Notes under the pieces: model-generated
The model's database searches: none
Told to the model about the DNA's origin: nothing
The model's input: the letters and a program-made list of their open reading frames with translations, nothing else
From: Candidatus Micrarchaeia archaeon
GTDB lineage: Archaea > Micrarchaeota > Micrarchaeia > CAILAH01
Assembly: GCA_038874595.1 (NCBI GenBank)
Contig: JAVZCB010000001.1
Coordinates: 96,001 to 160,000 of the forward strand
DNA length: 64,000 bases
Direction: 5' to 3'
Translations under genes and position numbers: made by a program
In this document: positions 4,199 to 25,516 of the stretch, in pieces
Layout of the letters: every line of letters begins with the position of its first letter
How positions within the stretch are numbered: the first letter of the stretch is position 1

Positions 4199-5724
4199 GT
4201 GTGATGCTCCAGAGGTTTGCCGATGAGGGCTTCCTCGTGGAATCGGGTGTTGACCGCCTGCTTGCAGAATGCGGTCTCCAGGCAGATGCAATAATTGAGT
4301 TTGCAAAACAGCGTGATGAGTTTATAATCTCGCATTCCTTGATTGAGGATTATCTCAGGCAGAAGCATGAGCAGGAGAAAGCCTCTTTGCAAGAGCCTAT
4401 CGAACCTGAAACGCAGGCGTGCATTGAGAAAGTTGTTGAGGTGAAGGTTGAGCGCCCAGTTTTCCGTGCACTGGCATCAGAGTATCCATCACGTATTGAG
4501 CACATTGCCAGGTATGATGTGAGCGGCAAGTCCACTTGTGAGGGCACAGTTGATGATTTTGTATCGCTTTTCAAGGATAGGCACAAGAGGATATCTGCAC
4601 TCTTGCACGCACAGCCGTCACAGTATCCAGTGACCACATTAAACGGTGCAAAGAAGGGTGAGAAGTGCAGGTTTATTGGGATGGTGCGCTCAAAAACGGT
4701 AACAAAGAATGGGCACCTGATAATTGAGATTGAGGATGAGCAGGGTGTGATGAAAGGGTTCATAAACAGCTCAAAGAAGGAGCTGATGGCCCTCTCAGGG
4801 CAGGTGCTTTTGGATGAGGTGCTCGCATTTGACGGTAATTACAAAGACCCTTTCTTCTTTATTGATGCAATTACGTGGCCGGATATCCCGGTAAGCAAAC
4901 CAAAACGCCTGATTGAGGAGGACCTTTCAATAGCTTTCTTATCCGATTTGCACGTTGGCAGCAAACTTTTTCTGGAAGACCAGTTTAAGCATATGCTTAA
5001 CTGGCTGAAGGGCAACTGCGGGGATGCGCGTGAGCGCGAGATTGCTTCCTCTGTAAAATACCTGTTTATAGCAGGTGATATGGTTGACGGTATAGGGATA
5101 TACCCCAACCAGGAGAAGGAGCTTGCAATACAGGACATTTATGAGCAGTACAATACGTTGTTCAATTATCTTGAGCAGGTCCCGGAATACATTGACATCA
5201 TAATGATACCAGGTAATCACGATGCGGTCAGGAGAGGTGACCCGCAACCGCGTATCCCGGATGAGTTCATTAGGAACAAGCGCTCAAACTATCATTTTGG
5301 CTCATCACCATCCTGGTTTAAGGTTGAAGGGCTAAACTGCCTGCTTTATCACGGCAATTCGCTTGATTCAATGATTGCAAACATAGCGGGGCTTTCATAC
5401 AACGAGCCAGAGAAGGCGCAGGTTGAATACTTGAAAAGGAGGCACTTGTCACCGATATATGGCTCTAACCACATAATCCCAGAGAAGGAGGATTATATGG
5501 TGATTGAGGACGTCCCGGATATTGTACATATGGGGCACGTGCATAAGAACGGTTATGTTGAGTACCGCAACGTGCTGTGTATTAACGCAGGCACGTGGCA
5601 GTCGCGTACCGAGTACCAGCGTATGCAGGGGCACATACCTACACCTGCAATTCTTCCGATATATAATATGAAACGCGGCTCGATTCGCCAGGTTGATTTC
5701 AATGGTGGTACCGTTGAGTGCTGA
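4195..5724 (+). CDS. polB: DNA polymerase D small subunit DP1 (proofreading exonuclease)
   Basis: OB fold plus phosphoesterase motifs SDLHVGS, AGDMVDGIGIYP, PGNHD, YHG, GHVH. Confidence 0.96.
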   Translation: MSVMLQRFADEGFLVESGVDRLLAECGLQADAIIEFAKQRDEFIISHSLIEDYLRQKHEQEKASLQEPIEPETQACIEKVVEVKVERPVFRALASEYPSRIEHIARYDVSGKSTCEGTVDDFVSLFKDRHKRISALLHAQPSQYPVTTLNGAKKGEKCRFIGMVRSKTVTKNGHLIIEIEDEQGVMKGFINSSKKELMALSGQVLLDEVLAFDGNYKDPFFFIDAITWPDIPVSKPKRLIEEDLSIAFLSDLHVGSKLFLEDQFKHMLNWLKGNCGDAREREIASSVKYLFIAGDMVDGIGIYPNQEKELAIQDIYEQYNTLFNYLEQVPEYIDIIMIPGNHDAVRRGDPQPRIPDEFIRNKRSNYHFGSSPSWFKVEGLNCLLYHGNSLDSMIANIAGLSYNEPEKAQVEYLKRRHLSPIYGSNHIIPEKEDYMVIEDVPDIVHMGHVHKNGYVEYRNVLCINAGTWQSRTEYQRMQGHIPTPAILPIYNMKRGSIRQVDFNGGTVEC

Positions 5725-8700
5725 TAACTCAAGAACACACACAGATAACAACGCACAGCAGCAGGCAACAGCCATTATTCATAATGATATCAAGGCATAT
5801 TTCAAGCGTATCGAGGAGGGGGCACAGGAAGCGCTCAGGATTGCAAACGAGGCGCGCAGGAAAGGCTACGATTTCGTTGACCATGTTGAGATAACGCTTG
5901 CACCTGATGTTGCAGGCCGTGTTGAGGGTATTGTTGGGCCGAAAGGCATTTCTGAGGTTATCAGGGAGCTGGTCGCACAGAAGAAGACGCGCGATGAGGT
6001 TGCGTTTGAGATTGCGCGCCGTATCACCACCAATGAATTTGCGACCGGCCTCAACACTGAGCAGCGGCTCGGGCAGGCAGTACGTACCGGCCTTGCGGTG
6101 CTTACCGAAGGTGTGCTGGTAGCACCTACTGAAGGTATATCCGCAGTTAAGATTGAGAAGAACCCTGACGGCTCAAACTACTTAGCGATTTATTTCTCCG
6201 GCCCGATTAGGTCGGCAGGAGGTACCGCAGCAGCATTGGCTGTCCTGCTGGGTGATTACGTCCGCCGGTTTGCTGATATTGGCGATTTTATACCTACAGA
6301 AACAGAACTGCTCCGCTATGTTGAGGAAGTGAATTTATATGATGCAAGGTGTGCCAGGCTGCAGTACAAGCCGCCAGATGAGGATATAAAATGGGTATTC
6401 AAGAATTGCAAGGTATGCATTGCAGGTGAGCCTACACACGATATTGAGGTTAGCGTGTACAGGAACCTTGAGCGCATGAAGACCAATAGGGTACGCAGCG
6501 GTGTTGCGCTCGTGAGCTGTGAAGGGATTGCACAGAAAGCGCGTAAAGTCCTCAAATACGCAAAGAAGTACGGGCTTGACTGGGGCTGGCTTGAGAAGCT
6601 TGTCAAGGAGAAAAAGAAAGAGGATAAGGTTGAAATCAAGCCGAACGATACGTTCTTGGAAGGGCTTGTTGCAGGCAGGCCGGTCTTTTCGTACCCATCA
6701 GCAAAAGGCGGGTTTAGGCTAAGGTATGGGCGCACGCGGTTTACAGGTATTGCTGCAAAAGCGATACACCCTGCTACTATGGTGCTGCTTGATTATTTCC
6801 CTGCGTTGGGAACACAGCTTAAGATAGAACGCCCAGGTAAAGGCACGGTAATAACACCGTGCGATACAATAATGGGCCCAATCGTTAGGCTCAAGAATGG
6901 TGATGTTGTATATGTTTCATCCTCAGATGAGGCAAAACTGCTTTATGAAGATGTTGAAAAAATCCTATTTCTAGGCGACATGCTTATATCCTATAATGAT
7001 TTTTCAAAAGCGAACCACGTGCTTTTACCATCACCGTTCGTTGAGGAGATATGGGACATGCTCGCTGCAGAAAAGTCAGCAAGCCAGGGTGAGCAAATCG
7101 TACGGCCCAGGACGGCGCGTGAGGCGTTTGATTTATCACGGAAGACATCGCTCCCATTATACCCGGCATACCTATACTTTTGGAGTGATATCTCAAAAGA
7201 AGAGCTGTTGACACTTGTTAACGCAATCACATCTGCTGGCAAAGTTGAGCTTGATTGGTTTGATGTAAAATCGCTTACAATCAATGATATGAGCGCAAAG
7301 CCCGTGCTTGAATCGCTCGGTGTGCCTCACAAGCTTAGGGATGGCGCAATAATAGTTGAAGGTGATCATGCATATTCACTTCTTGCCACACTCGGTATGC
7401 TTGGAAGCAGTTCAAACGCTAAAATATCCAGGGAAGTTATCGATTCTGCTGTTTCAAACGCCAATACTGATGACGTGTGCTCCATACTCACAATAGCATC
7501 AGGTGTTGAGATACGCAGGAAATCCACATATTATATAGGGTCCAGGATGGGCCGGCCTGAGAAGGCAGATGACCGCTCAATGGCAGGTTCTGTCCACGGC
7601 CTGTTCCCGATAGGAACGCTCGGTGGCAAACTCCGTAGTGTCTCAACAGCGATAAAGAGCAATTATGCATCCTCACTTAATGTTGACCTTGTAGAGCTGC
7701 ACTGCCACAAATGCAACGCAGTATCTTTTTATCCTGTATGCATTTCATGCGGTGCGCGCATCGAGTATGATATCTCAGCAGTTAAGCATAGTGTCAGGCC
7801 GATTGATTTCAAGTCGCTTTACGAGCGTGCAGTAAAACGATGCGATTGTTCACCTGAAGGGTTCCGTCTCATCGTGGGGCTTACAAGCAGCACAAAGTTC
7901 CCTGAAGCGCTCGAGAAAGGGCTTCTCCGTGCAAAACACGGCGTTTACGTGTTCAAGGATGGCACGTGCAGGTTTGATTCAACTGACCTGCCGGCAACGC
8001 ATTTCAGGCCGCGTGAGATAGGTACCTCAATTGAAAAGCTGCGCGAGCTTGGCTATCTATATGATGCTTCCGGCGCCCCGCTCGAATCCGAGGACCAGGT
8101 TGTTGAGCTGTTACCGCAGGATATAATATTATCAGAGAACTCTGCTGACTTTTTTTTGCGGCTCTCTCATTTCATTGATGACCTGCTCATACACCTATAT
8201 GGCATGAAGCCTTTTTACAATGCAGACTCAAAGGAGGACCTTATAGGCCATTTGTTTATCACACTCTCACCGCATACATCTGCAGGTGTGGTAAGCCGCC
8301 TCATCGGTTTTATTAAGGGCCGTGTCGGCATATCACATCCATATGTGATTTGTGCGCGCAGGAGAAATGCGGATGGTGATGAGGATACCGCGATACTTTT
8401 GATGGATGCATTCCTTAATTTCTCAAAGCTATACCTTCCAGAGACACGCGGCTCAACCATGGATGCGCCTATCGTTCTTACAACGGTTGTTGACCCTGCC
8501 GAGGTTGATGATGAAGTGCATGCAATGGAGGTTGTCAAATCTTATGGGCTCGAATTTTACAAGGCCGCTGAAGAGTACAAGCCGCCAAGCGCAATCAAGC
8601 CAGAGCTTGTTGAGGACAGGCTCGGGAAAGAAAGCGCGTTTTACTCTCTGGGGTATACGCACGAAGTCACGGATATAAATGATTCTCCAGTCCGTTCCGA

Positions 8701-9115
8701 GTACGTGCTATTAAAATCAATGAAGGATAAGCTTGATAAGCAGTTCTCACTATACAGCAGGCTGCGCGCAGTTGATGCAGTCGATGCGGCCACGCGGTTG
8801 CTATCATCGCATTTCATCCCAGACATCTATGGGAACCTACGCTCATTTTCCAGGCAGACGTTCCGCTGTGGCGGCTGCAACAACATTTATAGGAGAGTAC
8901 CATTATGCGGTAAATGCGAGAAGTGCGGCGGCAAGCTTCTCCTAACAATCAACAAGGGTGGGATTGAGAAATACATCAAGCTCGCCAAGTATCTCATAAC
9001 CAAGTACGATCTTCCTGAGTATACGATGCAGCGGTTGGAGCGCGTAGAGAAGGAAATCTCATCGATATTTGAGGATGAAAAAAAGAAGCAGTCATCTTTG
9101 GCGCAGTTCTTGTGA
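5702..9115 (+). CDS. polC: DNA polymerase D large subunit DP2, intein-free
   Basis: GPIRSAGGT, GGFRLRYGR, RMGRPEKA, FKDGTCRFD, RRNADGDED, C-terminal Zn finger and PIP box QSSLAQFL; exact start uncertain. Confidence 0.97.
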   Translation: MVVPLSADNSRTHTDNNAQQQATAIIHNDIKAYFKRIEEGAQEALRIANEARRKGYDFVDHVEITLAPDVAGRVEGIVGPKGISEVIRELVAQKKTRDEVAFEIARRITTNEFATGLNTEQRLGQAVRTGLAVLTEGVLVAPTEGISAVKIEKNPDGSNYLAIYFSGPIRSAGGTAAALAVLLGDYVRRFADIGDFIPTETELLRYVEEVNLYDARCARLQYKPPDEDIKWVFKNCKVCIAGEPTHDIEVSVYRNLERMKTNRVRSGVALVSCEGIAQKARKVLKYAKKYGLDWGWLEKLVKEKKKEDKVEIKPNDTFLEGLVAGRPVFSYPSAKGGFRLRYGRTRFTGIAAKAIHPATMVLLDYFPALGTQLKIERPGKGTVITPCDTIMGPIVRLKNGDVVYVSSSDEAKLLYEDVEKILFLGDMLISYNDFSKANHVLLPSPFVEEIWDMLAAEKSASQGEQIVRPRTAREAFDLSRKTSLPLYPAYLYFWSDISKEELLTLVNAITSAGKVELDWFDVKSLTINDMSAKPVLESLGVPHKLRDGAIIVEGDHAYSLLATLGMLGSSSNAKISREVIDSAVSNANTDDVCSILTIASGVEIRRKSTYYIGSRMGRPEKADDRSMAGSVHGLFPIGTLGGKLRSVSTAIKSNYASSLNVDLVELHCHKCNAVSFYPVCISCGARIEYDISAVKHSVRPIDFKSLYERAVKRCDCSPEGFRLIVGLTSSTKFPEALEKGLLRAKHGVYVFKDGTCRFDSTDLPATHFRPREIGTSIEKLRELGYLYDASGAPLESEDQVVELLPQDIILSENSADFFLRLSHFIDDLLIHLYGMKPFYNADSKEDLIGHLFITLSPHTSAGVVSRLIGFIKGRVGISHPYVICARRRNADGDEDTAILLMDAFLNFSKLYLPETRGSTMDAPIVLTTVVDPAEVDDEVHAMEVVKSYGLEFYKAAEEYKPPSAIKPELVEDRLGKESAFYSLGYTHEVTDINDSPVRSEYVLLKSMKDKLDKQFSLYSRLRAVDAVDAATRLLSSHFIPDIYGNLRSFSRQTFRCGGCNNIYRRVPLCGKCEKCGGKLLLTINKGGIEKYIKLAKYLITKYDLPEYTMQRLERVEKEISSIFEDEKKKQSSLAQFL

Positions 9116-9357
9116 ATGAAGATGAGACTATATTTATGTGGTTTTTATATCTGCTCTCAGAATAGTATTTTATCTATGTATATAGTACGCCTTTTCTAAT
9201 AAATAAGGTTGAGAAGGAGATACTTGTTTTCTTAATAACTGCTTTTTATAGTATTTTATTGCAACATTATTGTAACAGTTTATGAAAGTAGAAATTAATT
9301 AAGGCTGTAGATATTTGTATTTAATATATTTTCCAGTGATTTATTCTTGGTGTGATA

Positions 9358-10338
9358 ATGGATTTTTTTGAAGGAGTTCTTGTTATTATAAGTGCATTAA
9401 TATTTGCTGCGTTTTCGGCAGCTGTTGGTTATTATTATGGGGTGCAAACAGAACGCAAACGTAAAGAATATGAGTCAAATTCAGCATTAATTCATATCAA
9501 TCAGCAGTTAGCTGAGATTAAGATTAAGTTTGAAGAGATTGAGAAAGCCCGTAAAGATCGTGAGAAATTAGTGTCTGATATGAATGCAGAACGCATTGAA
9601 TTTATGGATATCCTTAGAAAGGACGCAAGTAAAAAGGAAGAAGATAGACTTAAACAAGTTCAAGAAATTATAGATAATATGGGTAAAATAGAAAGAATTC
9701 TTGTTGGTACTTATTCAAGAGGTAAGTCGGGTGAAGAACTTTTGAAAGAATCACTAAAAGATTTCATAAAAATACGCCTGGTAGAATGTAATGTATCCGT
9801 TGGCAATAATCTTACTGTCGAATATGGCTGGAAACTTAATGATGGTAAGTATATCCCTATAGATTCCAAATATCCAGATATATTTGGTCAAATTAGGAAA
9901 TTAGATGAAACCAACGATGCGAACGCTCGTAAAAAACTTAAGGAAATGATTAAGCGAACTTTAGAAAGAAATATAGATGATATCACAAAATATCAGAATC
10001 AAACAAAAACTACAGATTACTGTATTCTTTCAGTTCCAGATTCAATAATTGAGCTTTTACCAGAAATATGTCATTATGGTTTATCAAAAAGAGTTTTTGT
10101 CGTAGGATACTCAAATACAGCTATAATTGCGTTCCTTATCGCACAACAGTATAATAAAAGTTTGGAAGAACGTGATGTAAAGGAATTAAGCCAGATTATC
10201 GAGAGTCTCTCTATGATATTGGATAAGATTTCTGAGAACGTTAGTACTATCGAACGTGGGATTAAAATGGTCAAAAATGCCAGTGAAGATATTCAAGCTG
10301 AGGTGGTAAAGGGCAAACAAAAGATTAAGTTGTATTAA
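9358..10338 (+). CDS. rmuC: RmuC family protein (TM, coiled coil, PD-(D/E)XK-like domain)
   Basis: RGKSGEELL...IPIDSKYP...TTDYCILSVP matches the RmuC pattern. Confidence 0.8.
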   Translation: MDFFEGVLVIISALIFAAFSAAVGYYYGVQTERKRKEYESNSALIHINQQLAEIKIKFEEIEKARKDREKLVSDMNAERIEFMDILRKDASKKEEDRLKQVQEIIDNMGKIERILVGTYSRGKSGEELLKESLKDFIKIRLVECNVSVGNNLTVEYGWKLNDGKYIPIDSKYPDIFGQIRKLDETNDANARKKLKEMIKRTLERNIDDITKYQNQTKTTDYCILSVPDSIIELLPEICHYGLSKRVFVVGYSNTAIIAFLIAQQYNKSLEERDVKELSQIIESLSMILDKISENVSTIERGIKMVKNASEDIQAEVVKGKQKIKLY

Positions 10339-10444
10339 TGTTTTGGTTATTGAAAACTCTATACTTAAACTGGCTATTTCGGAAACCGAAAACTTATTAT
10401 TTAGTTAATCTCTAAGTAAATTCATCTCTAAATGGGAGGATGAT

Positions 10445-10957
10445 TTGTTGGGTCCTGGTGTGAGGTTAAGTATACTTCAAAAGAAGTCCGGAGAATGGTT
10501 TGATATGGAATCACATAGTGAAATAAGAGGTAATATTGTTGCAGTAAACGTCAGCGATTCCTGTTCAGGTGATTGGACTTTAAACTTAAAAATTTCTGAA
10601 GATTTGAGAAAATGTGAAGTTGCGGCTGTAACTTCTTCAGGAACAACAATTCTTCATGACCAAGTCAAGCATAAAACGATGGTTTTGAAGGCGAAAGATG
10701 AGAATGAATTTTATAGCCTATTGGGATTGGCATACATACAAGAAGATCGCCTTAGGATGAAAAGAGTGAGTTCTAGGACTAAAGTTCCGGTAGAAATATC
10801 TAATCGATTTGAGCTTGTGACAATGAGTAGCCTGGGCAAATTCGGACCAATGCGCGACAAGATTGCAGCAATAGTAAATAAAGAAGATTATGAGAGAATC
10901 GCATTGTTATTTTATTTACAGAAAATTGCCCCAATTTTGGACAAATTTAAAATTTAG
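10445..10957 (+). CDS. Hypothetical protein
   Basis: 170-aa ORF with GGAGG RBS before a TTG start; no motif recognised. Confidence 0.7.
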   Translation: MLGPGVRLSILQKKSGEWFDMESHSEIRGNIVAVNVSDSCSGDWTLNLKISEDLRKCEVAAVTSSGTTILHDQVKHKTMVLKAKDENEFYSLLGLAYIQEDRLRMKRVSSRTKVPVEISNRFELVTMSSLGKFGPMRDKIAAIVNKEDYERIALLFYLQKIAPILDKFKI

Positions 10958-10970
10958 AGGAGGTGAAATA

Positions 10971-11045
10971 ATGGCACGAAGAGTATCTTTCACAAGAAGC
11001 AATGGGAGCAGAGTTTGCTTCTATTCCACACGTAAGAGGCCTTGA
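10971..11045 (+). CDS. 24-aa basic microprotein MARRVSFTRSNGSRVCFYSTRKRP (not in ORF track)
   Basis: Strong GGAGGTGA RBS 5 nt before ATG, directly after the upstream stop. Confidence 0.55.
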   Translation: MARRVSFTRSNGSRVCFYSTRKRP

Positions 11046-11090
11046 ACTGAGAAGAACGTCTTAATAATGGAACCTAGCAATTGTCACATA

Positions 11091-11840
11091 TTATTTCTTT
11101 TGGTTTTGGAAAAACATTTTATTAAGAAAAGGTGATAGTAAGACTGGATCAAAAACTCTTTTCATTATGACTCTTGAATCAAGTTTTGTTTTCTTAGATG
11201 CAATCTCCATTATTGAAAAAATTTTTAAAAGGGTATCCAACCCCTCTTTTTCACAAAGGCTTTTAGCTTTGTTTAAAATTACAATATGTTGTTCTTTTGG
11301 TAAGTCAAACCTTAGTAGGTCAAACATTGAAATCTTAAGTGTTTCAAAATCTTTATTATTGAATTTTTCTCTAAATTTGTAAACTTCGTCATCTTTTAAT
11401 TTATTTACATAAGTATAAATTTTGTTTGAAAGTTGATTTGATTCGATTTTTCTTATCTTCGATTTCTTTGATAAAATTATTTTAGGTATTTGATTGTTAA
11501 GTATAGCGTATTTTAATTGATTTTTTTCATTTGCATTAAGTTTTTTGGAGTTTGGTGCAAGATAAGATAGTACAGGCAGTAATTTTGAAATAGGTAGTCT
11601 AATTTTTGAAATATCCTCTTTTGTGAATGCACTTCTTAACCAATAACCTCTAAGAAGTAGCGCTCTACTCACATAAATTTTTTTATTTTGAATATTCCAA
11701 TACGTTTTTTGTGAAACCATTTTATGCTCAACTAAGAAATCCCCCAGTATCCATAATTTTTGTATTTTTTTATGAGGATCAATCTCTCTTTTGTATTCAC
11801 TAGTCATTTTTTGAAGGGTAATTAAGATATAATCATTCAT
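11091..11840 (-). CDS. Hypothetical Lys-rich protein, weak resemblance to DUF1016 N-terminal domain
   Basis: ATG overlaps the GHKL ATPase stop; LWILGDFL...SRALLLRGYW pattern. Confidence 0.65.
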   Translation of the reverse strand: MNDYILITLQKMTSEYKREIDPHKKIQKLWILGDFLVEHKMVSQKTYWNIQNKKIYVSRALLLRGYWLRSAFTKEDISKIRLPISKLLPVLSYLAPNSKKLNANEKNQLKYAILNNQIPKIILSKKSKIRKIESNQLSNKIYTYVNKLKDDEVYKFREKFNNKDFETLKISMFDLLRFDLPKEQHIVILNKAKSLCEKEGLDTLLKIFSIMEIASKKTKLDSRVIMKRVFDPVLLSPFLNKMFFQNQKK

Positions 11841-13626
11841 CTTCTTCAACCTCTGCAACTTTCTTTTTAATTTCTTCACGTTTGTCCCAGAGCATTTTCT
11901 CAACTTTTGCAATTGTTTCAACTATCTTAACGTTTTTGTCCTTGCTATCTACTTCAATACCTTTCCTCTTGTAATATAGGTCAAGAAACCACGGTGTGGT
12001 AACGAATGCCAAATATGAGATAAATCTTTTTGTTATTTTCTTTTTCTTAGGAGTATTTAATCTCTCTAAATAAAAAGGATGTATTGAATTAATAACAATT
12101 ATTTTATCTCCCCACATATCTGAAGGAGGCATTTTTTCACCAAGTGGGTGAAAATCAAATTGTAAGCCTCGTTGCTTTATTTGTTTGTAATTTATTTTGT
12201 TACCATCATCAGATGAAGGTACTTCCCCCTTACTTTCTCCGATATTTGATCCTATCTGACCAGAGGTAGCATTTTCATTTATTTCACGTGATAAACCAGT
12301 TCTTATTTTACCTGTGCCTTTGTAGTCTTTGTTACCGAGTATAAAACCAGCACCTATGTCAGCGATTCCACTAAGCAAACCTTTGTCTGATTTTATTTCA
12401 CGTGTCCTTGCAAAGATATCGGTATCCATCTCCTTCGAAACATCACTAAAAATATCTGATAGAAGATCCGACAATGATTTTTCGTGTTCTTTTATTTTAT
12501 TTTTGTCAATCTCATCAAATTTTTGTTTTACAACAGCAGTGATTTTTGCAAGTTCTGAATAGATGTAATCACGTTCATCGGAGGGAGTAATATCTGACCT
12601 TGTAATGTCTATTTCAATTTTTTTCGTAATATCAAACCGTCCAATAATTTCTGGTCTTTCCCATACTGTATTGTCAATGTTATTCTCGTTACAATAATCC
12701 TTAAAACTCTCAAGTCTTGGTATCTCCCTTATGGTTGTACCTAATCTGCTGATACGTGGTAAGTATTCTTTAATCACGGGATTTTGATTAAGATATGTCG
12801 GTTCAATAATTTTGAAATAATACGTGGCAATACTTTTGTTGTTTTTGTCTTTAATTTCACCAGAAATGACCTCCCCAGGTATAGTGTTATAATCCAAAGG
12901 AGATATTTTGATTATTTGTGGTTTGCATACACTGCGCTTTTTGGTCCATCTATAAATATATATCTCAACAAGATTGCTACGTATAAACTCTTCGAAATGA
13001 ATTGGGATTGTGGTAATTAATTTTTCAGAGATGTAATCAAAAGAACTCCTTCTCTGTTCCTTTTTTGTAATTCCCTCAACAAATACATCTGTCCCATGAG
13101 TTCTTGTTATCCTATAATATTGGAATGCTCGTAAATCGAAAATGGAACCGAATACAGGCATCTGAACTTTCTCTTTTTCTTCATTTAGGTTCCCATAAAT
13201 TTCATTTCTTTCAAAGGATAGTAAATTTGTCTTTGGAGATTCATCTATACTTGTTGAATAAATTTTGATTGTGTCAAACCACCCTCTGAAAGATTGAATA
13301 CCATATCCAAATTGACCAGGTGTCCAAGCGTAAGCTTTTTTCTTTGAATTGAAAGTTTTTGTAGGTAATTCGCTAAGTTCTTTTCTGGTCATCCCAGCAC
13401 AATTATCTTGTATGATAAATCTCTTCCTTGTGGTATCAATATGAACAAGAATTTTTCTTGGCAATATTTCTTTACCGTATTTTTTTTCCAGCTCAATCGC
13501 ACTATCAATGGAGTTCTGTATATATTCATAAAGAACTGCTTCAGGTTGGTGGTACAGTGCAGCGATTCTTTGAATGATCTCCATTATTTGTTCATCTTTT
13601 GGATTATCTAGAATTCTTAACTTCAT
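11833..13626 (-). CDS. GHKL (HATPase_c_3/MORC-like) ATPase
   Basis: EYIQNSIDS (N box), IQDNCAGM (G1), GQFGYG (G2), GTDV. Confidence 0.85.
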   Translation of the reverse strand: MKLRILDNPKDEQIMEIIQRIAALYHQPEAVLYEYIQNSIDSAIELEKKYGKEILPRKILVHIDTTRKRFIIQDNCAGMTRKELSELPTKTFNSKKKAYAWTPGQFGYGIQSFRGWFDTIKIYSTSIDESPKTNLLSFERNEIYGNLNEEKEKVQMPVFGSIFDLRAFQYYRITRTHGTDVFVEGITKKEQRRSSFDYISEKLITTIPIHFEEFIRSNLVEIYIYRWTKKRSVCKPQIIKISPLDYNTIPGEVISGEIKDKNNKSIATYYFKIIEPTYLNQNPVIKEYLPRISRLGTTIREIPRLESFKDYCNENNIDNTVWERPEIIGRFDITKKIEIDITRSDITPSDERDYIYSELAKITAVVKQKFDEIDKNKIKEHEKSLSDLLSDIFSDVSKEMDTDIFARTREIKSDKGLLSGIADIGAGFILGNKDYKGTGKIRTGLSREINENATSGQIGSNIGESKGEVPSSDDGNKINYKQIKQRGLQFDFHPLGEKMPPSDMWGDKIIVINSIHPFYLERLNTPKKKKITKRFISYLAFVTTPWFLDLYYKRKGIEVDSKDKNVKIVETIAKVEKMLWDKREEIKKKVAEVEEDE

Positions 13627-13636
13627 ATTTTCGGCC

Positions 13637-13870
13637 TCATAAATTAAATTGTTCAAGTGTGGATTTTTTGAAAAGTGATTTTACACGTTTTGTTTCCTTT
13701 TCAATTGCAGTAAATATTACATTCACTTCTTCATCAGAATACTCATAAGTAGAGATATTTGAACAATTTTCTAATAATTTGAGAGTATATAAAGTTTTCC
13801 TAGTTCTAGCCTCAGTGATACGTCTGAATTTCTCATTTTTTGTCTCTCCCGCAACAGATATTTTTACCAT
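13637..13870 (-). CDS. Small conserved helical protein (KFRRITEARTRK...NCSN...YEYSDEEV type)
   Basis: First gene of the three-gene minus-strand operon; pattern recalled from hypotheticals next to DNA-modification loci. Confidence 0.7.
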   Translation of the reverse strand: MVKISVAGETKNEKFRRITEARTRKTLYTLKLLENCSNISTYEYSDEEVNVIFTAIEKETKRVKSLFKKSTLEQFNL

Positions 13871-14197
13871 ATAATCATCTAATACTATTAGTATTGATAA
13901 AAGCAAATATAAAAACTTTTTCATTTTATGTTGTATATATTGCGGCTCTTAAATATCCAAGCGTTCCGTTGTATGAGGCATCTAAATTTTCATACCCGCT
14001 CTTAAGTTATGATTGGAGGTGGTCAAGGTGATGCAAAAATACATATCTATCTTAAATTTTAGGCTCAGATGATTATCTTTAATCTCTGGACATTCTATTG
14101 TAAGTAATAATTTCAATGATAAGATATCTCCGACTATTGAAAAAGAGTGATCTTTACTCAGCTTCATTAAGTTATTTTTATTCTTTATTTATACCTA

Positions 14198-14278
14198 CTA
14201 CTGGAAGAACCACTGCTTTACTGCTTCTGTTGTGATGCAATAGAAAAACAAAATTTCGAATACGATGGCGATGCCAAG
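14198..14278 (-). pseudogene. Diverged copy of the mgtA 3' end
   Basis: 63/78 nt identical to 16757-16834; encodes LGIAIVFEILFFYCITTEAVKQWFFQ* versus LDIAIVFGIVFLYCITTEIVKQWFFQH. Confidence 0.92.
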
Positions 14279-14318
14279 ACATATTTTGGTGTATCTTTTC
14301 CCTTACGGCAAATGTAAG

Positions 14319-14522
14319 AAATGCGAGAAGTGCGGCGGCAAGCTTCTCTTAACAATCAACAAGGGCGGGATTGAGAAATACATCAAGCTGGCCAAATACC
14401 TGATTACAAAATATGGACTTCCAGAATATACGATGCAAAGGTTAGAGAGAGTTGAGAAGGAAATCTCATCGATATTTGAGGATGAAAAAAAGAAGCAGTC
14501 CTCACTGGCACAGTTCCTCTAA
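14319..14522 (+). pseudogene. Diverged copy of the polC 3' end (last 67 codons plus stop)
   Basis: 177/204 nt identical to 8912-9115, with only one amino-acid change (D to G). Confidence 0.97.
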
Positions 14523-14567
14523 TACTATTTTAAGCTTAGAGTACCTAATTATAGATGAGCTGATTTT

Positions 14568-15134
14568 ATGGGAAAAAGGAGTGGAAAGAAGGGTAATGAA
14601 TACTCTGATGCCGTATTCGTGGGTGTCGGAGGCTGCGGGATCAATACGGTCTCAAGGCTGTCAGAGCTGGGAATAACCGGCTCAAAGTTCGTACTTGTGA
14701 ATAAGAAGGGCGATAACCATCCCTCATCAGTGAAGGGCGCGTCCGAATTGATCGTTGACATGCCGTTATCAACGCGCATGCCGCTCCCAGACAAGGAACT
14801 TGGCGCTTTCAAGAGCCAGCTCTCCGAGGAGCTCAAAGGCGCCGGGAAGGCATACATATTCGCAGGGCTTGGCGGCTCAACAGGTACCTCCCTTGCGCCG
14901 ATTGCCGCGCAAACAGCCAGGGAAATGGGCGTGGAGCCGGTCATAATAGTCACTCTTCCGTTTGAGGTTGAGAGGAATAGGTGTGAGATTGCCAGGAATA
15001 CGCTCCCCGCGCTCAGGGATATCCCCGGCCAGCTAATAGTCCGCGACAACAACGATTTGGTGAAGGAGTGTCCTAACCTATCGATGAAAGAGGCATTCAA
15101 GAAATTCGATGAGAAGCTCATAGGACAGCTCTGA
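14568..15134 (+). CDS. Short FtsZ/tubulin-family protein, N-terminal GTPase domain only
   Basis: VGVGGCGIN, AGLGGSTGTSLAP, VTLPFEVE, DNNDL, EAFKKFD; stops before the T7 loop and C-terminal domain. Confidence 0.8.
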   Translation: MGKRSGKKGNEYSDAVFVGVGGCGINTVSRLSELGITGSKFVLVNKKGDNHPSSVKGASELIVDMPLSTRMPLPDKELGAFKSQLSEELKGAGKAYIFAGLGGSTGTSLAPIAAQTAREMGVEPVIIVTLPFEVERNRCEIARNTLPALRDIPGQLIVRDNNDLVKECPNLSMKEAFKKFDEKLIGQL

Positions 15135-15281
15135 TTAATTTCCTTTTATTTTAGGGTTTCTATGATATTTGTTTATGCAGTTATGTGTGGCACAAAAGAC
15201 AGACAATTAAGTAATCTTAAAATCCAAGGTAAGGCGTTTTGTAATATTTTATATATTTATATCTTCACTAATGATAGGATC

Positions 15282-15893
15282 ATGGATAAAAAAACTGTCT
15301 TTGAAATTGTTAAAAAATTACAATTTGACACTAAAAAAATTATTTACAAAAAAGGTAATACCTCTGTATATATTATAAGACCATCTAAATTATCTAAGCG
15401 ATTTAATGAGTATGATGTGCATAAGAATTTCCAGATATTCCTTAGGATTGGTGAACGTGAATTTAGGCCAAATCATCTTAGGGTGATGATTGATCTTAAC
15501 CTAAGGATTCGCAGCCGCCCTGAACTGAAGAAAAAGCTACTCCTAGCGTTTGACAATATATTCTATGGAGCAGATCCAGAAAAGGAACTGAAAGCTCTGT
15601 CCCGACAGAAGTTTGAGCATTTTCTAAATGATTTGATAGTTATTGGTACACTTGCCCAATTATTTGTGATTGAGCAGGAATATTGTTATCACAGAAAAAG
15701 TAATTTTGATCCACCAACTCTCTTTTTTCAGGGCTGGGTTAGGGAATTTCTAGATAATCCTAAGGAAATAGATAATTTGTGCATGAGCGTTTGTAAAGGC
15801 CTACCTCCATTACAAAAATATGTATCTCGTGAAAATAAGAAAAGCAAAAACTATTCAAAGAAACTTAAGCCCCTTTGGTATCTTAAATCTTAA
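15282..15893 (+). CDS. Hypothetical protein, candidate restriction partner of the convergent MTase
   Basis: AT-rich 203-aa basic ORF whose stop overlaps the MTase stop; no catalytic motif recognised. Confidence 0.6.
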   Translation: MDKKTVFEIVKKLQFDTKKIIYKKGNTSVYIIRPSKLSKRFNEYDVHKNFQIFLRIGEREFRPNHLRVMIDLNLRIRSRPELKKKLLLAFDNIFYGADPEKELKALSRQKFEHFLNDLIVIGTLAQLFVIEQEYCYHRKSNFDPPTLFFQGWVREFLDNPKEIDNLCMSVCKGLPPLQKYVSRENKKSKNYSKKLKPLWYLKS

Positions 15894-16663
15894 TTCTCGG
15901 ACCATGCTTCAACAAGTTGCTTCTGAACTGCACCTAGGCGTTTTTTGGCAATTTCAATGTATTTTTCTTCTTTGTCTATACCTATTGAATTCCTATTAAG
16001 CATCTTTGCCGCTACCGATGTTGTTCCTGAGCCAACAAATGGATCTAGGACAGTATCACCTTCATTTGAAGTTGCAAGTATGATCCTCTTCAATAACTCT
16101 AGGGGTTTTTGGGTTGGATGAATACCATATTTTTTTTCACTCTTTGGTGTTAAAGGTATTTCCCACACATTACGCATTTGCTTGCCTTTATTTATAGATT
16201 TCATCAGTTCATAATTAAATACCCATTTCTTGTTGCTATGATTCTTTGTTGCCCAGATAAGATGTTCTGTGGATTCAGTAAACATGCGACACGTTATGTT
16301 TGGCTGGGCATTTGGCTTGAACCATACGATTGAATTGTTAATCTTTGCCTCATATATATGCTGAAGGATAAAACCAATCTGATAAATGTTATGGAACGAG
16401 CCACATACCCAAAAGCTCCCACCATGCTTCAAAACTCTCATACATTCCTTTATCCACTTCTGATTGAACTTAAAGAATTCGTCTTTCTCAAATATGTCCC
16501 ATTCTTCTGTAAGCGTTATGTGTTTGCTATATGCCCATCCCAGACCCTTCTTTTTCGCTAATCCATAAGGCGGGTCAGCAAATATCAGGTCAACTGATTC
16601 ATCAGGCATTTTCTTTAGCTCCTCAATTGCATCACCAATAATCAGCTGGTGAGTGGTCTTCAT
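15890..16663 (-). CDS. Beta-class N6A/N4C DNA methyltransferase, DpnA/M.MboIB-like
   Basis: DPPY before HPTQKP and DPFVGSGTT; PNITCRMFTESTE...FNYELMKSINKGKQM resembles the DpnA group. Confidence 0.92.
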   Translation of the reverse strand: MKTTHQLIIGDAIEELKKMPDESVDLIFADPPYGLAKKKGLGWAYSKHITLTEEWDIFEKDEFFKFNQKWIKECMRVLKHGGSFWVCGSFHNIYQIGFILQHIYEAKINNSIVWFKPNAQPNITCRMFTESTEHLIWATKNHSNKKWVFNYELMKSINKGKQMRNVWEIPLTPKSEKKYGIHPTQKPLELLKRIILATSNEGDTVLDPFVGSGTTSVAAKMLNRNSIGIDKEEKYIEIAKKRLGAVQKQLVEAWSEN

Positions 16664-16726
16664 AAATTCATTTCACGTAGATTGTTTAAAAACATTATTA
16701 CAGAGATATTCCAGTTATTTTAAATA

Positions 16727-19324
16727 CTAATAGCTATTCTCAAACTCCTTATAATGCTGGAAGAACCACTGCTTTACTATTTCTGTTGTGATGCAGTACA
16801 GGAACACGATCCCGAACACGATTGCAATATCAAGCGCGGATGGAACTGCAAAATTGAAATATTGGCCCACCGCGGGAAGTGAGACCACCGCAACCGCAGC
16901 GGCTGTGATAAACAGCGAAGATGTGATTAGCAGCCTGCTTGGTATGCTTGCAAAGAACGGCCCGCGCGTTCTCACTATGAATGTTATGAATATCTCGGAT
17001 AGCAGCGATTCAAGGAACCAGAGCGTTCGCAGCAGTGCCGCCCCTACGCCTAACACGTAATAGAATACTAATATGGTGAGCAGGTCAAACAGTGAGCTTA
17101 ACACACCGAAGAATACCATGAAATGCGAGATCATCTTGACATTCCATTTCTTAGGTGTCTTGATAGATTTCTCATCCACGTTATCTGTTGATATTGCGAG
17201 CATTGGGAAATCGCTGAGGAAGTTGTTCAATAATATCTGTACCGGAAGAAGCGGTATAAATGGAAGAAACAGCGGTGATATAATTACAGTGCCCATATTA
17301 CCGTAATTTGCGCTTATTGTGTTGAGTATATATTTTGTAATATTAGCGAACGTTTTCCTGCCCTCACGCACACCATCTGCGATTACCCTGAGGCTCTTAT
17401 GTGTCAGGACAACATCCGCTGCCTCTTTTGCAACGTCCTGTGCGGTATTTACTGAAATCCCCACATCAGCAAGCCGGAGAGCTGGTGCATCATTAATACC
17501 ATCACCCATAAACCCGACGATGTGGCCGTTTGCACGGACAGCTTCAAGGATTCTTACTTTTTGTGCAGGTGTAACACGCGCAAACACATTGTATTTCTCA
17601 ACAACCTCGTGTAATTTTTTATCATCTATATTATCAATCTCCTTGCCGGTGATTACGCGTTTTCCCTTAATCTCGAGCTTTACATCCTTACATAATCTCT
17701 TTGTAACATCCGGGTCATCACCGGTTAAAAGCATCAGTGATATGTCCAATTCCTTAAACTGCTTGATTGATTCAATAGCAGTTCTCTTAGGCTCGCTCTT
17801 AAAGAGCATAAACCCTTCCAACGTTAGCTCGCGCTCATCTGCAACAGAGTAATCATTCTTTTGTGGGACGGCTCGTGAAGCCACTGCGAGTACAGAGTAT
17901 CCTTCCTTTGCAAACCCCCGCACAATCTCATTTATCTTTTTCCTAACACTATCAATCTCAGTTTTCTTGCCGTTGATGTTGGCATAAGCACATACAGAGA
18001 GCACAGATTCTGCCTCACCTTTTGTTATAAGCACAATCTCCTGTCGTGATTTTCGCTTGCTTGTTTTCTGTGATATTTTAAACACTTCGCTCATCCGTTT
18101 CCTTTCATAATCGAACGCAATATCATCAATGTTTGCATACCCATCCGGCTTTTGGATATGATGAAGGTTCGCATATCTGATTATTGCAGTATCATATACA
18201 TTTCCAGAAATGTGTTTGCCGTGCGTATGCGCATGACTGCACAGCAACCCATATTTCAGGACACCCCAATCATCATTACCTAACGGTGCAACAGTTTTCT
18301 CAAGCATAAGTTCCGGCTCGGTAAGCGTACCGGTCTTATCCATTAGCAGCACGTCCATGAGCCCAACATCTTCGATTGTGGCGAGCTTTTTAACCACGAC
18401 TTTCTTCTCAGCCATCTTAAGTGCACCTGCAGACAACGTGATGGTAGTGATTGCAGGAAGCATCTCAGGTGCAATGCCAACAGCCACTGCAAGTGCAAAC
18501 AATAAAGATTCAAGGATACCCCTGCCAAGATATGAGTTTACAGCAAACACAAATATTGTCATTATTACAATGACCTGGAGTGTGAACGTACTGAACTTCC
18601 TGATATTAACCTGGAAATCAGATTCAGGTATCTTTGCTGAGTATAGTGTAGCGGTCCTGCCAAAATGCGTAGATTGACCCGTGGCAACCACTATACCTTT
18701 TGCAGTACCGTAAGTTACAGTGGTCCCCATAAGTGCATAATTCTTAAGCTCATATGCTGCCGGCCGTGCAAGCTTAATAGGCGCCGTACTTTTCTCAACC
18801 TCGCGCGACTCACCAGTTATTGCAGATTCATTCGTACGGAAATCTTCACATCTGACCAAACGCATATCCGCAGGCACAACGTTCCCGATCTCAAGCAGGA
18901 CCACATCACCGGGTACAAGGTCCTCCGCATTGATTTCTTCCTGCCGTCCATCACGTATTACAACAGCCTTATTTGAAAGATACCTCTTGAGCTGGCGTAG
19001 CGAGTTTTCTGAACGGTACTCTTGATAGAACCCGAGCAGTGCACTTAACAGCAGTATCGCTATAATCGTGAGCCCCTCTGTTGTATCCCCAATGTATAAA
19101 GCTATGACTGAGGCAAAAATTAGTATGAATATGAAAGCGTTATTAAACTGCGAAAGCAGTATCTCAAGCCATGAACGCCTGTCCCTCTCTGGGATTGAGT
19201 TCCTTCCGTAAACCATTCTCCTGCGTGCAACTTCATGTGCGCTTAGCCCTTTCTCAGGATCAACCTTAAGTGCAGCTGCAACTTGATAGCTTTCCAATCG
19301 CCAATATTCACTATTGTTATTCAC
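16727..19324 (-). CDS. mgtA: Magnesium-translocating P-type ATPase (P3B-like)
   Basis: [55 protein letters not shown]; probable GTG start at 19324. Confidence 0.88.
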   Translation of the reverse strand: MNNNSEYWRLESYQVAAALKVDPEKGLSAHEVARRRMVYGRNSIPERDRRSWLEILLSQFNNAFIFILIFASVIALYIGDTTEGLTIIAILLLSALLGFYQEYRSENSLRQLKRYLSNKAVVIRDGRQEEINAEDLVPGDVVLLEIGNVVPADMRLVRCEDFRTNESAITGESREVEKSTAPIKLARPAAYELKNYALMGTTVTYGTAKGIVVATGQSTHFGRTATLYSAKIPESDFQVNIRKFSTFTLQVIVIMTIFVFAVNSYLGRGILESLLFALAVAVGIAPEMLPAITTITLSAGALKMAEKKVVVKKLATIEDVGLMDVLLMDKTGTLTEPELMLEKTVAPLGNDDWGVLKYGLLCSHAHTHGKHISGNVYDTAIIRYANLHHIQKPDGYANIDDIAFDYERKRMSEVFKISQKTSKRKSRQEIVLITKGEAESVLSVCAYANINGKKTEIDSVRKKINEIVRGFAKEGYSVLAVASRAVPQKNDYSVADERELTLEGFMLFKSEPKRTAIESIKQFKELDISLMLLTGDDPDVTKRLCKDVKLEIKGKRVITGKEIDNIDDKKLHEVVEKYNVFARVTPAQKVRILEAVRANGHIVGFMGDGINDAPALRLADVGISVNTAQDVAKEAADVVLTHKSLRVIADGVREGRKTFANITKYILNTISANYGNMGTVIISPLFLPFIPLLPVQILLNNFLSDFPMLAISTDNVDEKSIKTPKKWNVKMISHFMVFFGVLSSLFDLLTILVFYYVLGVGAALLRTLWFLESLLSEIFITFIVRTRGPFFASIPSRLLITSSLFITAAAVAVVSLPAVGQYFNFAVPSALDIAIVFGIVFLYCITTEIVKQWFFQHYKEFENSY

Positions 19325-19497
19325 AGGACCACATAAATACTTCTGCCAAATACTTAAAAAGGCATTATGTTGTACATGCACGCGCAGGATGAGGGTGCCT
19401 GGTAGCACGGTGGTAGCAGAATTTTAAATCCGGCAAGTGCGCAACTGGAAACCTTCATACAGAGCGCTTTTATAACTCAGGTTGTAGAATATCTACC

Positions 19498-20481
19498 ATG
19501 GATCAACTTGTTCCCATAAAGATATCCTCGCTCAGGCACGGCCAGCAGGTTTCAGGCATATTTGCAGTAAAGATACGCAAAGCGCTCGGTACGTATACGA
19601 AAGGCCACCGGCTTGACCTGATACTTACGGATTCAAGTGGAGGAAGTATCCAATTTACGCTATGGGGCGGCTCTGGCGAAGATGCGCGTGCGCAGCTGCA
19701 GGCGCTGCTTGACTCGATACCTGAGGATGCAGTACTGCACATAACCGGCAAGGTTGACGATTATAACGGTGAATTGTACATAGCTGCAAATTCTATTGAT
19801 TCAGTGCGCGTGCTTAATGAAGGTGAGTTTCCGGCCGATGCGTTCATCCCGCCAGCACGGCGTGACATAAATGAGATGCGCACCGAGCTTGAAACCGCAA
19901 TAAAATCAATCCGAAACACGCACATCACATCAGTGCTCTTGCACATATTCACTAATGAATTTAAGGAGAAATTCTTGGTGCATCCCGCTGCGGTACAACA
20001 TCATCATAACCGTACAGGCGGGCTTGCAGAGCATACCCTTGAGGTTGTGCATATATGTGAGGAGCTGTGTAGGATTTATCCATCTCTTGACCGTGATCTT
20101 CTCATTGCGGGTGCATTGCTCCATGATATAGGCAAGACTAAGGAGATCACTGTAAGCCGCCGGATAAAGGCAGATTCGCAGAGCCAGCTGGTTGGGCATC
20201 TCATGTATACGGCACTTATGCTTTCGCAGGCGTTTGATGCATGTAATACACCAGAGCCGTTACGCTCCAAGCTGCTGCACCTCTCATTAAGCCACCACGG
20301 GAAAAATGATTACGGCTCACCTAAAGAGCCGATGTTTCCTGAAGCGGCAGCATTGCATTACGCTGATGAGACCAGCGCAATCGTGGCGGAAATGCTTGAT
20401 TTTGTCAGTGAGTACCGGGATATCACACTTGATGACACAATGTACTCCCGCACGCTGAGGAGAAACATCTATCTCAGGTAG
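19498..20481 (+). CDS. YhaM/Cbf1-like 3'-5' exonuclease (OB plus HD domains)
   Basis: HPAAVQHHH...GGLAEHT, LLHDIGK, SHHG, LHYAD. Confidence 0.9.
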   Translation: MDQLVPIKISSLRHGQQVSGIFAVKIRKALGTYTKGHRLDLILTDSSGGSIQFTLWGGSGEDARAQLQALLDSIPEDAVLHITGKVDDYNGELYIAANSIDSVRVLNEGEFPADAFIPPARRDINEMRTELETAIKSIRNTHITSVLLHIFTNEFKEKFLVHPAAVQHHHNRTGGLAEHTLEVVHICEELCRIYPSLDRDLLIAGALLHDIGKTKEITVSRRIKADSQSQLVGHLMYTALMLSQAFDACNTPEPLRSKLLHLSLSHHGKNDYGSPKEPMFPEAAALHYADETSAIVAEMLDFVSEYRDITLDDTMYSRTLRRNIYLR

Positions 20482-20535
20482 CCTCAGAGAAGCGTACATA
20501 TTATGCTTTTATATGTTGGCTGCCTACTATAAAAT

Positions 20536-20591
20536 GGCGATGAAGCTCGCCGGCACAAAAGCGAACCGCCAAAGTTGGCTGATAGCTTCTG
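20536..20591 (+). promoter_or_regulatory. Fluoride (crcB) riboswitch
   Basis: GGCGAUGAAGCUCGCC...AACCGCC-aaaguu-GGCUGAUAGCUUCU: stem GGCGA/UCGCC, pseudoknot GAAGCU/AGCUUC, conserved GAUG and CUGAU; TATA-like ttttatat at 20507-20514. Confidence 0.87.
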
Positions 20592-20612
20592 GTTTTACAC
20601 GAAGGTGGTTTT

Positions 20613-20765
20613 ATGGTGTACTTTTGCCCATATTGTAACATGAGTAACGGGCTAACCTCGGTTCTCACTGAGGATGCACAGTCAGGTGAGCTGGTATGCA
20701 AGTACGATTCACAGCACAGGTTCACAGTCGGGCGTGACGGGTTCCTAAAAGTGGTTAACAAGTAG
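20613..20765 (+). CDS. 50-aa putative Zn-binding microprotein (CPYC...C-x5-H), not in ORF track
   Basis: MVYFCPYCNMSNGLTSVLTEDAQSGELVCKYDSQHRFTVGRDGFLKVVNK*, RBS AAGGTGG. Confidence 0.8.
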   Translation: MVYFCPYCNMSNGLTSVLTEDAQSGELVCKYDSQHRFTVGRDGFLKVVNK

Positions 20766-20818
20766 TTTGTGTATCCTGTCCAGCACAGTAAAATCAATAT
20801 ACAGTCTGGTGGTGCAGT

Positions 20819-22570: not shown

Positions 22571-22575
22571 TATGA

Positions 22576-22785
22576 ATGGGTGATGCTTTATTGCCATTAT
22601 TTCCAATCGCAATAATTTTTCTTGTCCTGCTTGGTGTAATGGTATTTTTGCGCACATATATCCATTTTCCAAGGATGGCGTGGCCAGAAAGAGTTATGCT
22701 CGCGTTCAGGAACGCTTTCTATATGGTACTCTTGATAATCATCCTGTGTATCATTTTTCTTATTTTGGTCCCTTACCTGGTTTAG
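22576..22785 (+). CDS. Small two-TM membrane protein
   Basis: Two hydrophobic helices; starts 5 nt after the dynamin stop. Confidence 0.65.
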   Translation: MGDALLPLFPIAIIFLVLLGVMVFLRTYIHFPRMAWPERVMLAFRNAFYMVLLIIILCIIFLILVPYLV

Positions 22786-23059
22786 GGCATTTCTTATTAT
22801 AACCTAGCGCTTCAAGTATAGCATATACGCGCTTGTTCCTTATTTCATAAAATACTCGCCGCCCCATTCTTTTAGATGATATAACACCAAGCCTCTCAAG
22901 CTTTTTGAGCTGTAATGAAACAGTAGGTTGGGCCTTTTTAACCTGTGGGAATATCTTACATACGCATAGTTTTCCGTTGAGTAGCAGCTCTACTATTCTG
23001 AACCGCGTATCATCGGCAAGTGCCTTAACGAGCTTGATAGCATCTTCTCTTGTGCGCAT
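22760..23059 (-). CDS. arsR: ArsR/SmtB family regulator
   Basis: KALADDTRFRIVELL...LCVC...QPTVSLQLKKL. Confidence 0.9.
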   Translation of the reverse strand: MRTREDAIKLVKALADDTRFRIVELLLNGKLCVCKIFPQVKKAQPTVSLQLKKLERLGVISSKRMGRRVFYEIRNKRVYAILEALGYNKKCPKPGKGPK

Positions 23060-23119
23060 ATGACATATTTATGTTTGTAAATATATAAATGTTTGTGTGC
23101 AAATATATACTGTGATATT

Positions 23120-23362: not shown

Positions 23363-23410
23363 CCTACCGGTTTCTGGTGGCCAACCTGGTTTGAGTATAA
23401 AGTGGTATTT

Positions 23411-24529: not shown

Positions 24530-24595
24530 TCGTAAAGCAGTTGGTATTTTTGTACCAACAGTGGGTATATACAAAAAATGAATCGCTTTTGTATT

Positions 24596-25438: not shown

Positions 25439-25516
25439 ATATAGTAATACCTCATAACAAATAAGTGTATTAACATTTATATGCAGTTTATGATACTTTA
25501 CAGCTAAAGAGGCGTT

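Follow-up and report, generated by a model that had tools for sequence, protein, structure and literature searches.

How can a block of genes be added directly behind an essential polymerase gene in an archaeon with no detectable integrase? The question is raised by a locus in the metagenome-assembled genome (MAG) of a hot-spring archaeon of the Candidatus (Ca.) Micrarchaeota (918 kb in 7 contigs, 93.5% complete), of which we analysed a stretch of 64,000 nt, here called the window (C1:96001-160000). In it, polC, which encodes DP2, the large subunit of the archaeal DNA polymerase PolD, and mgtA, which encodes a Mg-translocating P-type ATPase, face each other across an interval that contains a spare 3' end of each gene. 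The order is polC > A < mgtA' | polC' > B < mgtA, where A and B are two groups of genes and polC' and mgtA' are the spare ends. The DP2 of the window is best matched by proteins named Ca. Micrarchaeota or Micrarchaeia. An initial annotation, made from the sequence of the window, had proposed this order and had described the two repeats, and both descriptions were borne out: polC' (14319-14522) differs from polC 8912-9115 at 27 of 204 nt and 1 of 67 aa, and mgtA' (14201-14278) differs from mgtA 16757-16834 at 15 of 78 nt (63/78 identical). The two repeats gave BLAST E-values of 4e-66 and 7e-13. A genome-wide search for spare gene ends returned just polC' and mgtA', besides one local tandem repeat and a tRNA pair. 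The parts of the locus are as follows.

5702..9115, plus strand: polC, intact, 1137 aa (Pfam PF03833/PF24844/PF24846)
8912..9115, plus strand: left repeat, the tail of the working polC; matches the empty-site allele at 195 of its first 198 nt
9104..9109, plus strand: left switch point, CAGTTC
9110..14516, no strand assigned: inserted unit of 5,407 bp, made up of cargo A, mgtA', the joint and a foreign/resident polC fragment
14201..14278, minus strand: mgtA', 26 codons from close to the mgtA end
14279..14318, plus strand: joint of 40 nt, unique in the genome and without Ns
14319..14522, plus strand: polC', the spare tail
14511..14516, plus strand: right switch point, CAGTTC
16727..19297, minus strand: mgtA, intact (TIGR01524 above cut-off)

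A single insertion behind polC

The cluster to which the DP2 of the window belongs has one other member, from MAG GCA_038891275.1, which matches the window at 99.87% over 9.1 kb upstream and 99.86% over 11.3 kb downstream. In this sister strain an ftsZ-like gene, the first gene of segment B, directly follows polC; the site is empty and has a single copy of the repeat. By cluster membership, cargo A was not found elsewhere in this MAG either. The polC contig of the sister MAG stops 106 nt past the stop codon, and a second contig restarts within the restriction endonuclease (REase)-like gene of segment B. The polC tail of the empty allele is of the working-copy type up to repeat position 192 (195/198) and of the polC' type from position 199. 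These two informative sites leave CAGTTC (9104-9109/14511-14516) as the sole interval in which the filled and empty alleles can join, and the alleles differ by one block, 9110-14516. We found that 9110-14516 is a single insertion into the resident B locus. Because the sister MAG has an empty allele and the ftsZ-like gene also stands behind polC in a distinct species (L067, 87% aa identity in the C-terminal part of DP2), segment B is the resident state and cargo A is the addition. The empty allele is not an assembler jump, since only 6 nt are common at the switch and a private base is present at position 189. A third assembly (SRR27730023) contained the single-nucleotide polymorphisms of the sister strain, and in it a DNA methyltransferase (MTase) gene adjoins mgtA.

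These alleles agree with the initial annotation in that DNA was added rather than swapped in. Its proposal of two alternative alleles held in part: a B-only allele exists and an A-only allele was not found. Its treatment of B as an alternative cargo did not hold, since B is mostly the resident state and the ftsZ-like gene follows polC in another species.

The working polC is of the resident type up to 9109, and the insert supplies its last two codons (TTG TGA). The polC of a congener, G001, ends TTC TTG TGA, as does the filled allele. The working gene differs from that of the sister strain at 12 positions, 3 of them in the last two codons. In this comparison of two strains, 3 changes private to the working copy fall in the last 198 nt (one of them non-synonymous) and 6 in the first 3,210 nt. 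The sole aa difference between the two tails, D versus G (nt 9009), is private to the working copy, as both the sister strain and polC' have G.

We considered whether the filled locus is a chimera that the assembly made from two strains, one A-only and one B-only. Such an error is conceivable in a short-read MAG of a genome rich in short perfect tandem duplications, and Logan contigs leave the joint uncovered. However, the joint is unique, has no Ns and is not producible by repeat collapse, and the empty allele differs from both copies in the window. Logan contigs of SRR30574052 match 10090-14049, 14471-17220 and 17197-25514 at 100%, so that 3,960 nt of cargo A and the recombinant right junction occur at 100% in one run with the flanking contigs of this strain. 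The right junction, consisting of the foreign positions 183-192, the resident stop codon and the ftsZ-like gene, was thus reproduced in a separate assembly, in which contig L051 carries polC' from 14471 onward at 100%. The contig covering 14471-17220 starts exactly 30 nt before the end of a 47-nt stretch common to both tails, and its start is the only one among the ends of these contigs whose 30-mer occurs twice; branching at this stretch is expected if both tails are in the assembly graph. SRR30574052 is possibly the source of the MAG itself, which makes this an independent assembly and not necessarily an independent sample. On this evidence we regard a chimera as highly improbable.

Elsewhere in the genome we observed near-perfect local duplications of 40-130 nt, for example 3707-3746/3837-3876 of the window. 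This example is also present in the sister MAG, showing that at least some such duplications are real. ARAGORN, run without intron search, found only 5 tRNA genes in the genome, suggesting many intron-containing or unusual tRNAs.

Origin of the spare gene ends

Compared with the empty allele, polC' differs at 23 of 198 nt in 21 codons, and none of the changes is non-synonymous even though 157 of the 198 sites are. As all differences are synonymous, polC' diverged within a working gene. This agrees with the earlier proposal that the divergence arose under purifying selection in another lineage, and it rules out a simple tandem duplication followed by neutral decay (0/23 non-synonymous changes). 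The divergence is not uniform along the tail: polC' is resident-like at positions 1-71 and 136-182, foreign at 72-135 and 183-192, and resident from 199. This clustering is significant (p<=1e-5, with weights taken from eight relatives), and the relatives' own differences are evenly spread. The distance of the foreign patches from the resident sequence is that of other species (22/80 versus 15-21/80). Over these 80 nt they show 15 differences to G001, 13 to L067 and 22 to the resident; they are saturated, and the donor was not identifiable by distance. Over the whole repeat, the downstream copy is 175/198 identical to the empty site and the upstream copy 195/198.

The mgtA' fragment lacks the last nine codons of mgtA and is followed by TAG TAG; it differs at 5 of 26 aa and carries a G-to-E change in a conserved helix. 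It is also a mosaic, with 13 differences in its 5' half and 2 in its 3' half, compared with 11-17 and 8-14 in relatives; the pattern is weaker than that of polC'. Contrary to the initial annotation, mgtA' is not a complete 3' end, as it stops 30 nt before the mgtA stop codon. The 3' half of the joint resembles polC in local alignment (shuffle p of 0.0005 for G001 and L067, 0.003 for G002 and 0.078 for the resident), slipped by 9 nt at AAATGC. This is suggestive of an older, decayed foreign piece of polC. Since the joint is nearer to the polC of other species than to that of the resident, the spare fragment was probably foreign first. A tandem duplication followed by replacement of one copy was rejected, because polC' should then be resident and the 3' half of mgtA' donor-type, and the opposite was observed.

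An ATG within mgtA', read antisense, is in frame with the spare tail and yields an 83-aa open reading frame (14271-14522, plus strand) that was called as a gene in the MAG. Its product would end in the DP2 PIP-like motif, which in P. abyssi is used for PCNA and primase binding (PMC7101311). We rejected a decoy role for this product as very unlikely, as no sign of expression supports it. A 17-nt match of 9206-9222 to the polC tails of G003 and G008 (E 0.04) was treated as chance.

Route of entry

The unit was said to be integrase-free, and we found no integrase in the unit or the genome. Searches for a tyrosine recombinase, a resolvase, a large serine recombinase and a DDE_Tnp_1 transposase found none in the 93.5%-complete genome; other insertion sequence families were not searched. 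PF00589, which includes XerA-like proteins, was found in 0 of 9 family genomes (61-93% complete) and in 43 of 79 well-assembled genomes of the class. RadA is present and NucS was not found. In other Micrarchaeia, a comparable spare polC tail was found in 0 of 385 genomes with a polC-tail match. These class tallies (385 and 43/79) count the unpublished genomes G085 and G297 like any other, and none of the conclusions rests on those two. A further three genomes had two polC-tail matches each and were set aside as contig-edge splits or a second full gene. Cargo A and the polC tail were not found in viral contigs, and the joint pattern was not found in the genome contigs searched.

We think it somewhat probable that a circle derived from the polC-A-mgtA interval of a related species entered by a single homologous crossover and persisted as an unresolved pop-in that was later patch-converted. 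The resident locus is polC > ftsZ-like > REase-like >< MTase < mgtA, and the donor would be a related species that lacked the B genes and had cargo A in its polC-mgtA interval. One donor interval can supply both fragments because convergent polC and mgtA genes neighbour each other throughout the family and are directly adjacent in the congener G002. A donor piece reaching from inside the polC tail through A into the mgtA tail may have been closed to a 5.4-kb circle by one non-homologous joint. A single crossover by the host RadA would then have joined the polC handle of the circle to the tail of the resident polC. Branch migration to the end of the homology would make the exchange appear at CAGTTC, two codons before the stop, which is where the switch lies. 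The polymerase would keep its own tail and take just the last codon and the stop from the donor, with the donor tail parked downstream. Later gene conversion could have brought resident sequence into both spare fragments, which are mosaic. The product would be the unresolved pop-in intermediate of an allele swap: recombination between polC and polC' would yield the B-only allele, which is seen, and recombination between mgtA' and mgtA would yield the A-only allele, which is not. Filled and empty alleles now coexist in the species, and ordinary recombination in the flanks could spread them. Loss of B would remove its restriction-modification (RM)-like pair and may be penalised via post-segregational killing.

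Several points weigh against this reading. Neither the circle nor the donor was seen, and no A-only allele was found; B-only and A+B alleles were seen in the two strains compared. Over about 200 bp of DNA with about 80% identity, crossover is inefficient, and the reading has to assume three conversion patches at a later time. The independent assembly covers neither 14050-14470 nor the left junction, and the absence of recombinases rests on incomplete MAGs (61-93%). The empty allele itself could be a secondary deletion, and the split of mgtA' (13 versus 2) and the alignment of the joint are post hoc observations.

The initial annotation had offered two routes, a single-crossover insertion of a circle and a crossover in polC combined with an illegitimate joint. 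The circle fits better because the working polC is resident-tailed and the spare copy has the foreign patches. The other route, homology-facilitated illegitimate recombination with linear DNA, is possible but doubtful. It posits a crossover in polC, with donor polC-A-mgtA' joined illegitimately to the resident polC 204 nt before its stop; the spare tail would be resident first and would have taken donor patches from a then donor-type working copy, which was later swept back by conspecific DNA. In line with this, a resident-type stretch opens polC' right at the joint, 200 bp make a poorer substrate than a 3.4-kb anchor, the 3 private changes in the 198 nt of the working tail (against 6 in the first 3,210 nt) are as for a recombining island border, and there is a precedent in the Vibrio cholerae type VI secretion system (T6SS) arrays (PMC5361080). 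However, it requires one extra step, in which the working copy is swept completely as far as position 192. No donor tract emerged in the working copy when it was compared with three relatives in a sliding manner, and the polC-like part of the joint is of the foreign rather than the resident type. We consider it rather unlikely that the unit is a persistent integrase-free circle with two handles, the polC tail and the mgtA tail, each with a stop codon of its own, and that it cycles in and out of the chromosomes of several Micrarchaeota species by RadA alone and gains host patches in each cycle.

It is also unlikely that the filled allele is the older one in the species and that the sister strain lost A by repeat recombination, the tandem itself having arisen by one of the routes above. 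The indels in the joint and the G-to-E change in mgtA' do indicate a structure older than the 0.1% divergence of the strains, but a deletion crossover would be expected in the matching patches of 47 or 71 nt, leaving foreign sequence at 183-192, where the empty allele is resident. Still less probable is site-specific integration by a tyrosine recombinase acting in trans, encoded by a virus or integrative element, with CAGTTC as a 6-bp overlap and the gene scraps as relics of earlier imprecise excision. A switch confined to 6 bp has the size of a tyrosine-recombinase overlap, a 5/6 inverted pair surrounds it in the empty site, and the same operon of a GHKL ATPase that cargo A carries lies in an integrase island of genome G362. 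Yet no integrase was found in the unit, the genome or the family, the circle junction as reconstructed lacks the inverted arms, and the 6 bp are simply the end of the 198-nt homology. The site is used in none of the 385 other genomes, and no viral contig has the cargo or the tail.

Gene content, relatives and known systems

Cargo A is AT-rich (GC 31.6% across 9110-14200 versus 44% in the genome) and contains the following genes.

9358..10338, plus strand: RmuC-family protein, 326 aa (PF02646, E 6.6e-17)
10445..10957, plus strand: orphan open reading frame, 170 aa, no Pfam or PADLOC match
11091..11840, minus strand: 249-aa protein, third gene of the GHKL operon, 43% identical to the same-position gene in G362
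11833..13626, minus strand: GHKL (MORC/paraMORC-like) ATPase, 597 aa (PF13589, E 3.7e-7)
13637..13924, minus strand: small first gene of the GHKL operon, 77-95 aa, with 53% and 60% identity to the genes preceding that of the ATPase in G362 and G372

The RmuC-family gene is patchy, occurring in 5 other genomes among 400 in the class, and no homologue of the 170-aa orphan was found outside its own cluster. The ATPase is 50% identical to its G362 counterpart and has 91 relatives at E<=1e-10. No Pfam or PADLOC family was assigned to the 249-aa protein, and the ESM Atlas gave a named family neither for it nor for the C-terminal half of the ATPase. Besides the RmuC-family protein, the orphan and the GHKL operon, cargo A has no MTase and no PADLOC match. 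In G362 the GHKL operon is inside an island with a tyrosine integrase, a McrB-like AAA protein, a DndB-like protein, a D12 MTase and an EVE-NucS protein. In G372 the operon is decayed and adjoins a D12 MTase and a 67% identical homologue of the REase-like gene of B. GHKL proteins of the MORC/paraMORC-type radiation act mainly in restriction-modification contexts (PMC2292703). From the neighbours of its homologues, we predict that cargo A is DNA of the defence-island type. A scan for promoters and terminators gave results at chance level.

Two other features of cargo A were observed. A basic open reading frame of 24 codons with a strong Shine-Dalgarno sequence (GGAGGTGA) lies directly after the orphan (10971-11045, plus strand). 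The three-gene GHKL operon, without a nuclease or MTase, is conserved in distant defence islands of Micrarchaeia (window 11091-13924; L076:9642-12399; L079:2270-3586) and is a candidate for an undescribed defence module.

Segment B contains three genes.

14568..15134, plus strand: stand-alone FtsZ-like GTPase domain, resident, 188 aa (PF00091)
15282..15893, plus strand: putative restriction endonuclease, 203 aa (longer start at 15162), convergent with the MTase, no family match
15890..16663, minus strand: N6/N4 DNA methyltransferase, type II-like (PF01555, E 4e-60; PADLOC MTase_II, E 6e-89)

The ftsZ-like gene has a GC content of 53% and the REase-like/MTase pair one of 34.5%; within B, only the pair appears to have been acquired. 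The MTase is the same in both strains. The REase-like gene is 67% identical to the G372 gene beside the D12 MTase and decayed GHKL operon, and this genomic context suggests an REase function for its product. The MTase is 88.5% identical to one in GCA_037447235.1 (L104:10001-10780), while the convergent partners there and here share only 27% identity, reflecting either a partner swap or fast divergence. No orthologue of the FtsZ N-domain gene was found in eight other family genomes (best matches 32-37%), and the ftsZ-like copy of L067 (L067:8424-8780) is internally deleted to 118 aa.

Convergent polC and mgtA were found in G002, G007, G008, L052, L053, L067 and L068. The slot between them is empty in G002 (genes 315 bp apart) and contains an EndoV-like gene in G007, 4.7 kb in G008, a HAD gene in L052, L053 and L068, and ftsZ-like, HAD, MBL and UbiA genes in L067. 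Thus, the content of the interval varies across species as had been expected, with mainly housekeeping-type genes rather than defence cargo. The suggestion of a general cassette accordion is unproven, as the layout was seen in no other Micrarchaeia genome searched (385).

Other observations concern the same two genes in relatives. In L038:6170-6720 (G006), what appears by eye to be a RelE-type toxin/antitoxin pair lies right behind the polC stop, another slot cargo. The DP2 genes of L032 (G001) and L038 (G006) have an intein-sized insertion at the position of window 8367-8372, which is lacking in the window gene. Two divergent full-length DP2 genes occur in one MAG (G214:C21 and C79), probably through contamination. 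In L052 (6591-7220), the final 51 nt of mgtA form a tandem array of 8.8 copies, next to a 62-nt unit present three times, and fewer of these repeats are found in L053:7400-7500 and L068:6520-6860. The mgtA end is a recurrent duplication spot.

The locus shares features with several known systems. In rhs C-terminal displacement through circular intermediates (Jackson et al. 2009, PMC2935791), as here, a conserved gene end serves as the homology handle, a single circle crossover adds DNA and deletes none, and a spare 3' fragment of the anchor gene lies downstream of the intact gene with no integrase. It differs in that the incoming rhs tip becomes functional and the old one is shunted downstream, whereas here the working tail is of the resident type bar its last two codons. 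In addition, rhs arrays hold variable toxin tips with immunity genes, and the present case concerns one unit, an essential PolD subunit whose protein is unchanged, a second handle (mgtA') and an archaeal host. In the T6SS effector-immunity arrays of Vibrio cholerae, formed by homology-facilitated illegitimate recombination (Kirchberger et al. 2017, PMC5361080), a module is likewise added through a homologous joint and a non-homologous one, which pushes older DNA downstream, but the incoming end is the functional one there and the functional end is resident-type here.

Insertion with long target duplication was described for restriction-modification genes (Furuta et al. 2010, PMC2853133) in a survey that retained no archaeal case. 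The present insert is similarly below 20 kb (5,407 bp), has direct repeats above 30 bp (198-204 bp) and no mobility gene that we found, and has an empty site with a single repeat copy (GCA_038891275.1). It differs in that it contains no R and M pair, the RM-like pair lying outside it, and in that the downstream repeat is partly foreign rather than a copy of the target (175/198 versus 195/198). Replacement flexible genomic islands and integrase-free hotspots of horizontal gene transfer (Lopez-Perez et al. 2014, PMC4033161; Oliveira et al. 2017, PMC5635113) also have variable genes between the same two core genes, exchanged via the flanks, and synonymous changes at the border may be a further likeness. 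However, they are double-crossover swaps without duplicated core ends, and the additive islands of that scheme carry integrases or transposases, whereas the present case is additive and integrase-free. It looks like the half-way stage of a swap. Unlike a tyrosine-integrase element, it has no integrase gene in or beside the unit. We found no paper on a comparable case in Micrarchaeota.

The locus is a well-bounded case, and one case only, of known homology-driven gene addition at the essential polymerase of an archaeon. Being a single event in a single strain, it serves as a good example and does not amount to a new system. Many gene-transfer hotspots are integrase-free, and gene addition there is usually inferred without intermediates. 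This locus offers a filled allele, a near-identical empty allele, a 6-bp switch point and donor scraps on both sides, all in an archaeon of the DPANN group, and it connects additive with replacement islands as alternative results of a single pop-in/pop-out process. If the unit does cycle as a circle among species, such cycling would be a regular route for defence-type cassettes in a family without a detectable tyrosine recombinase.

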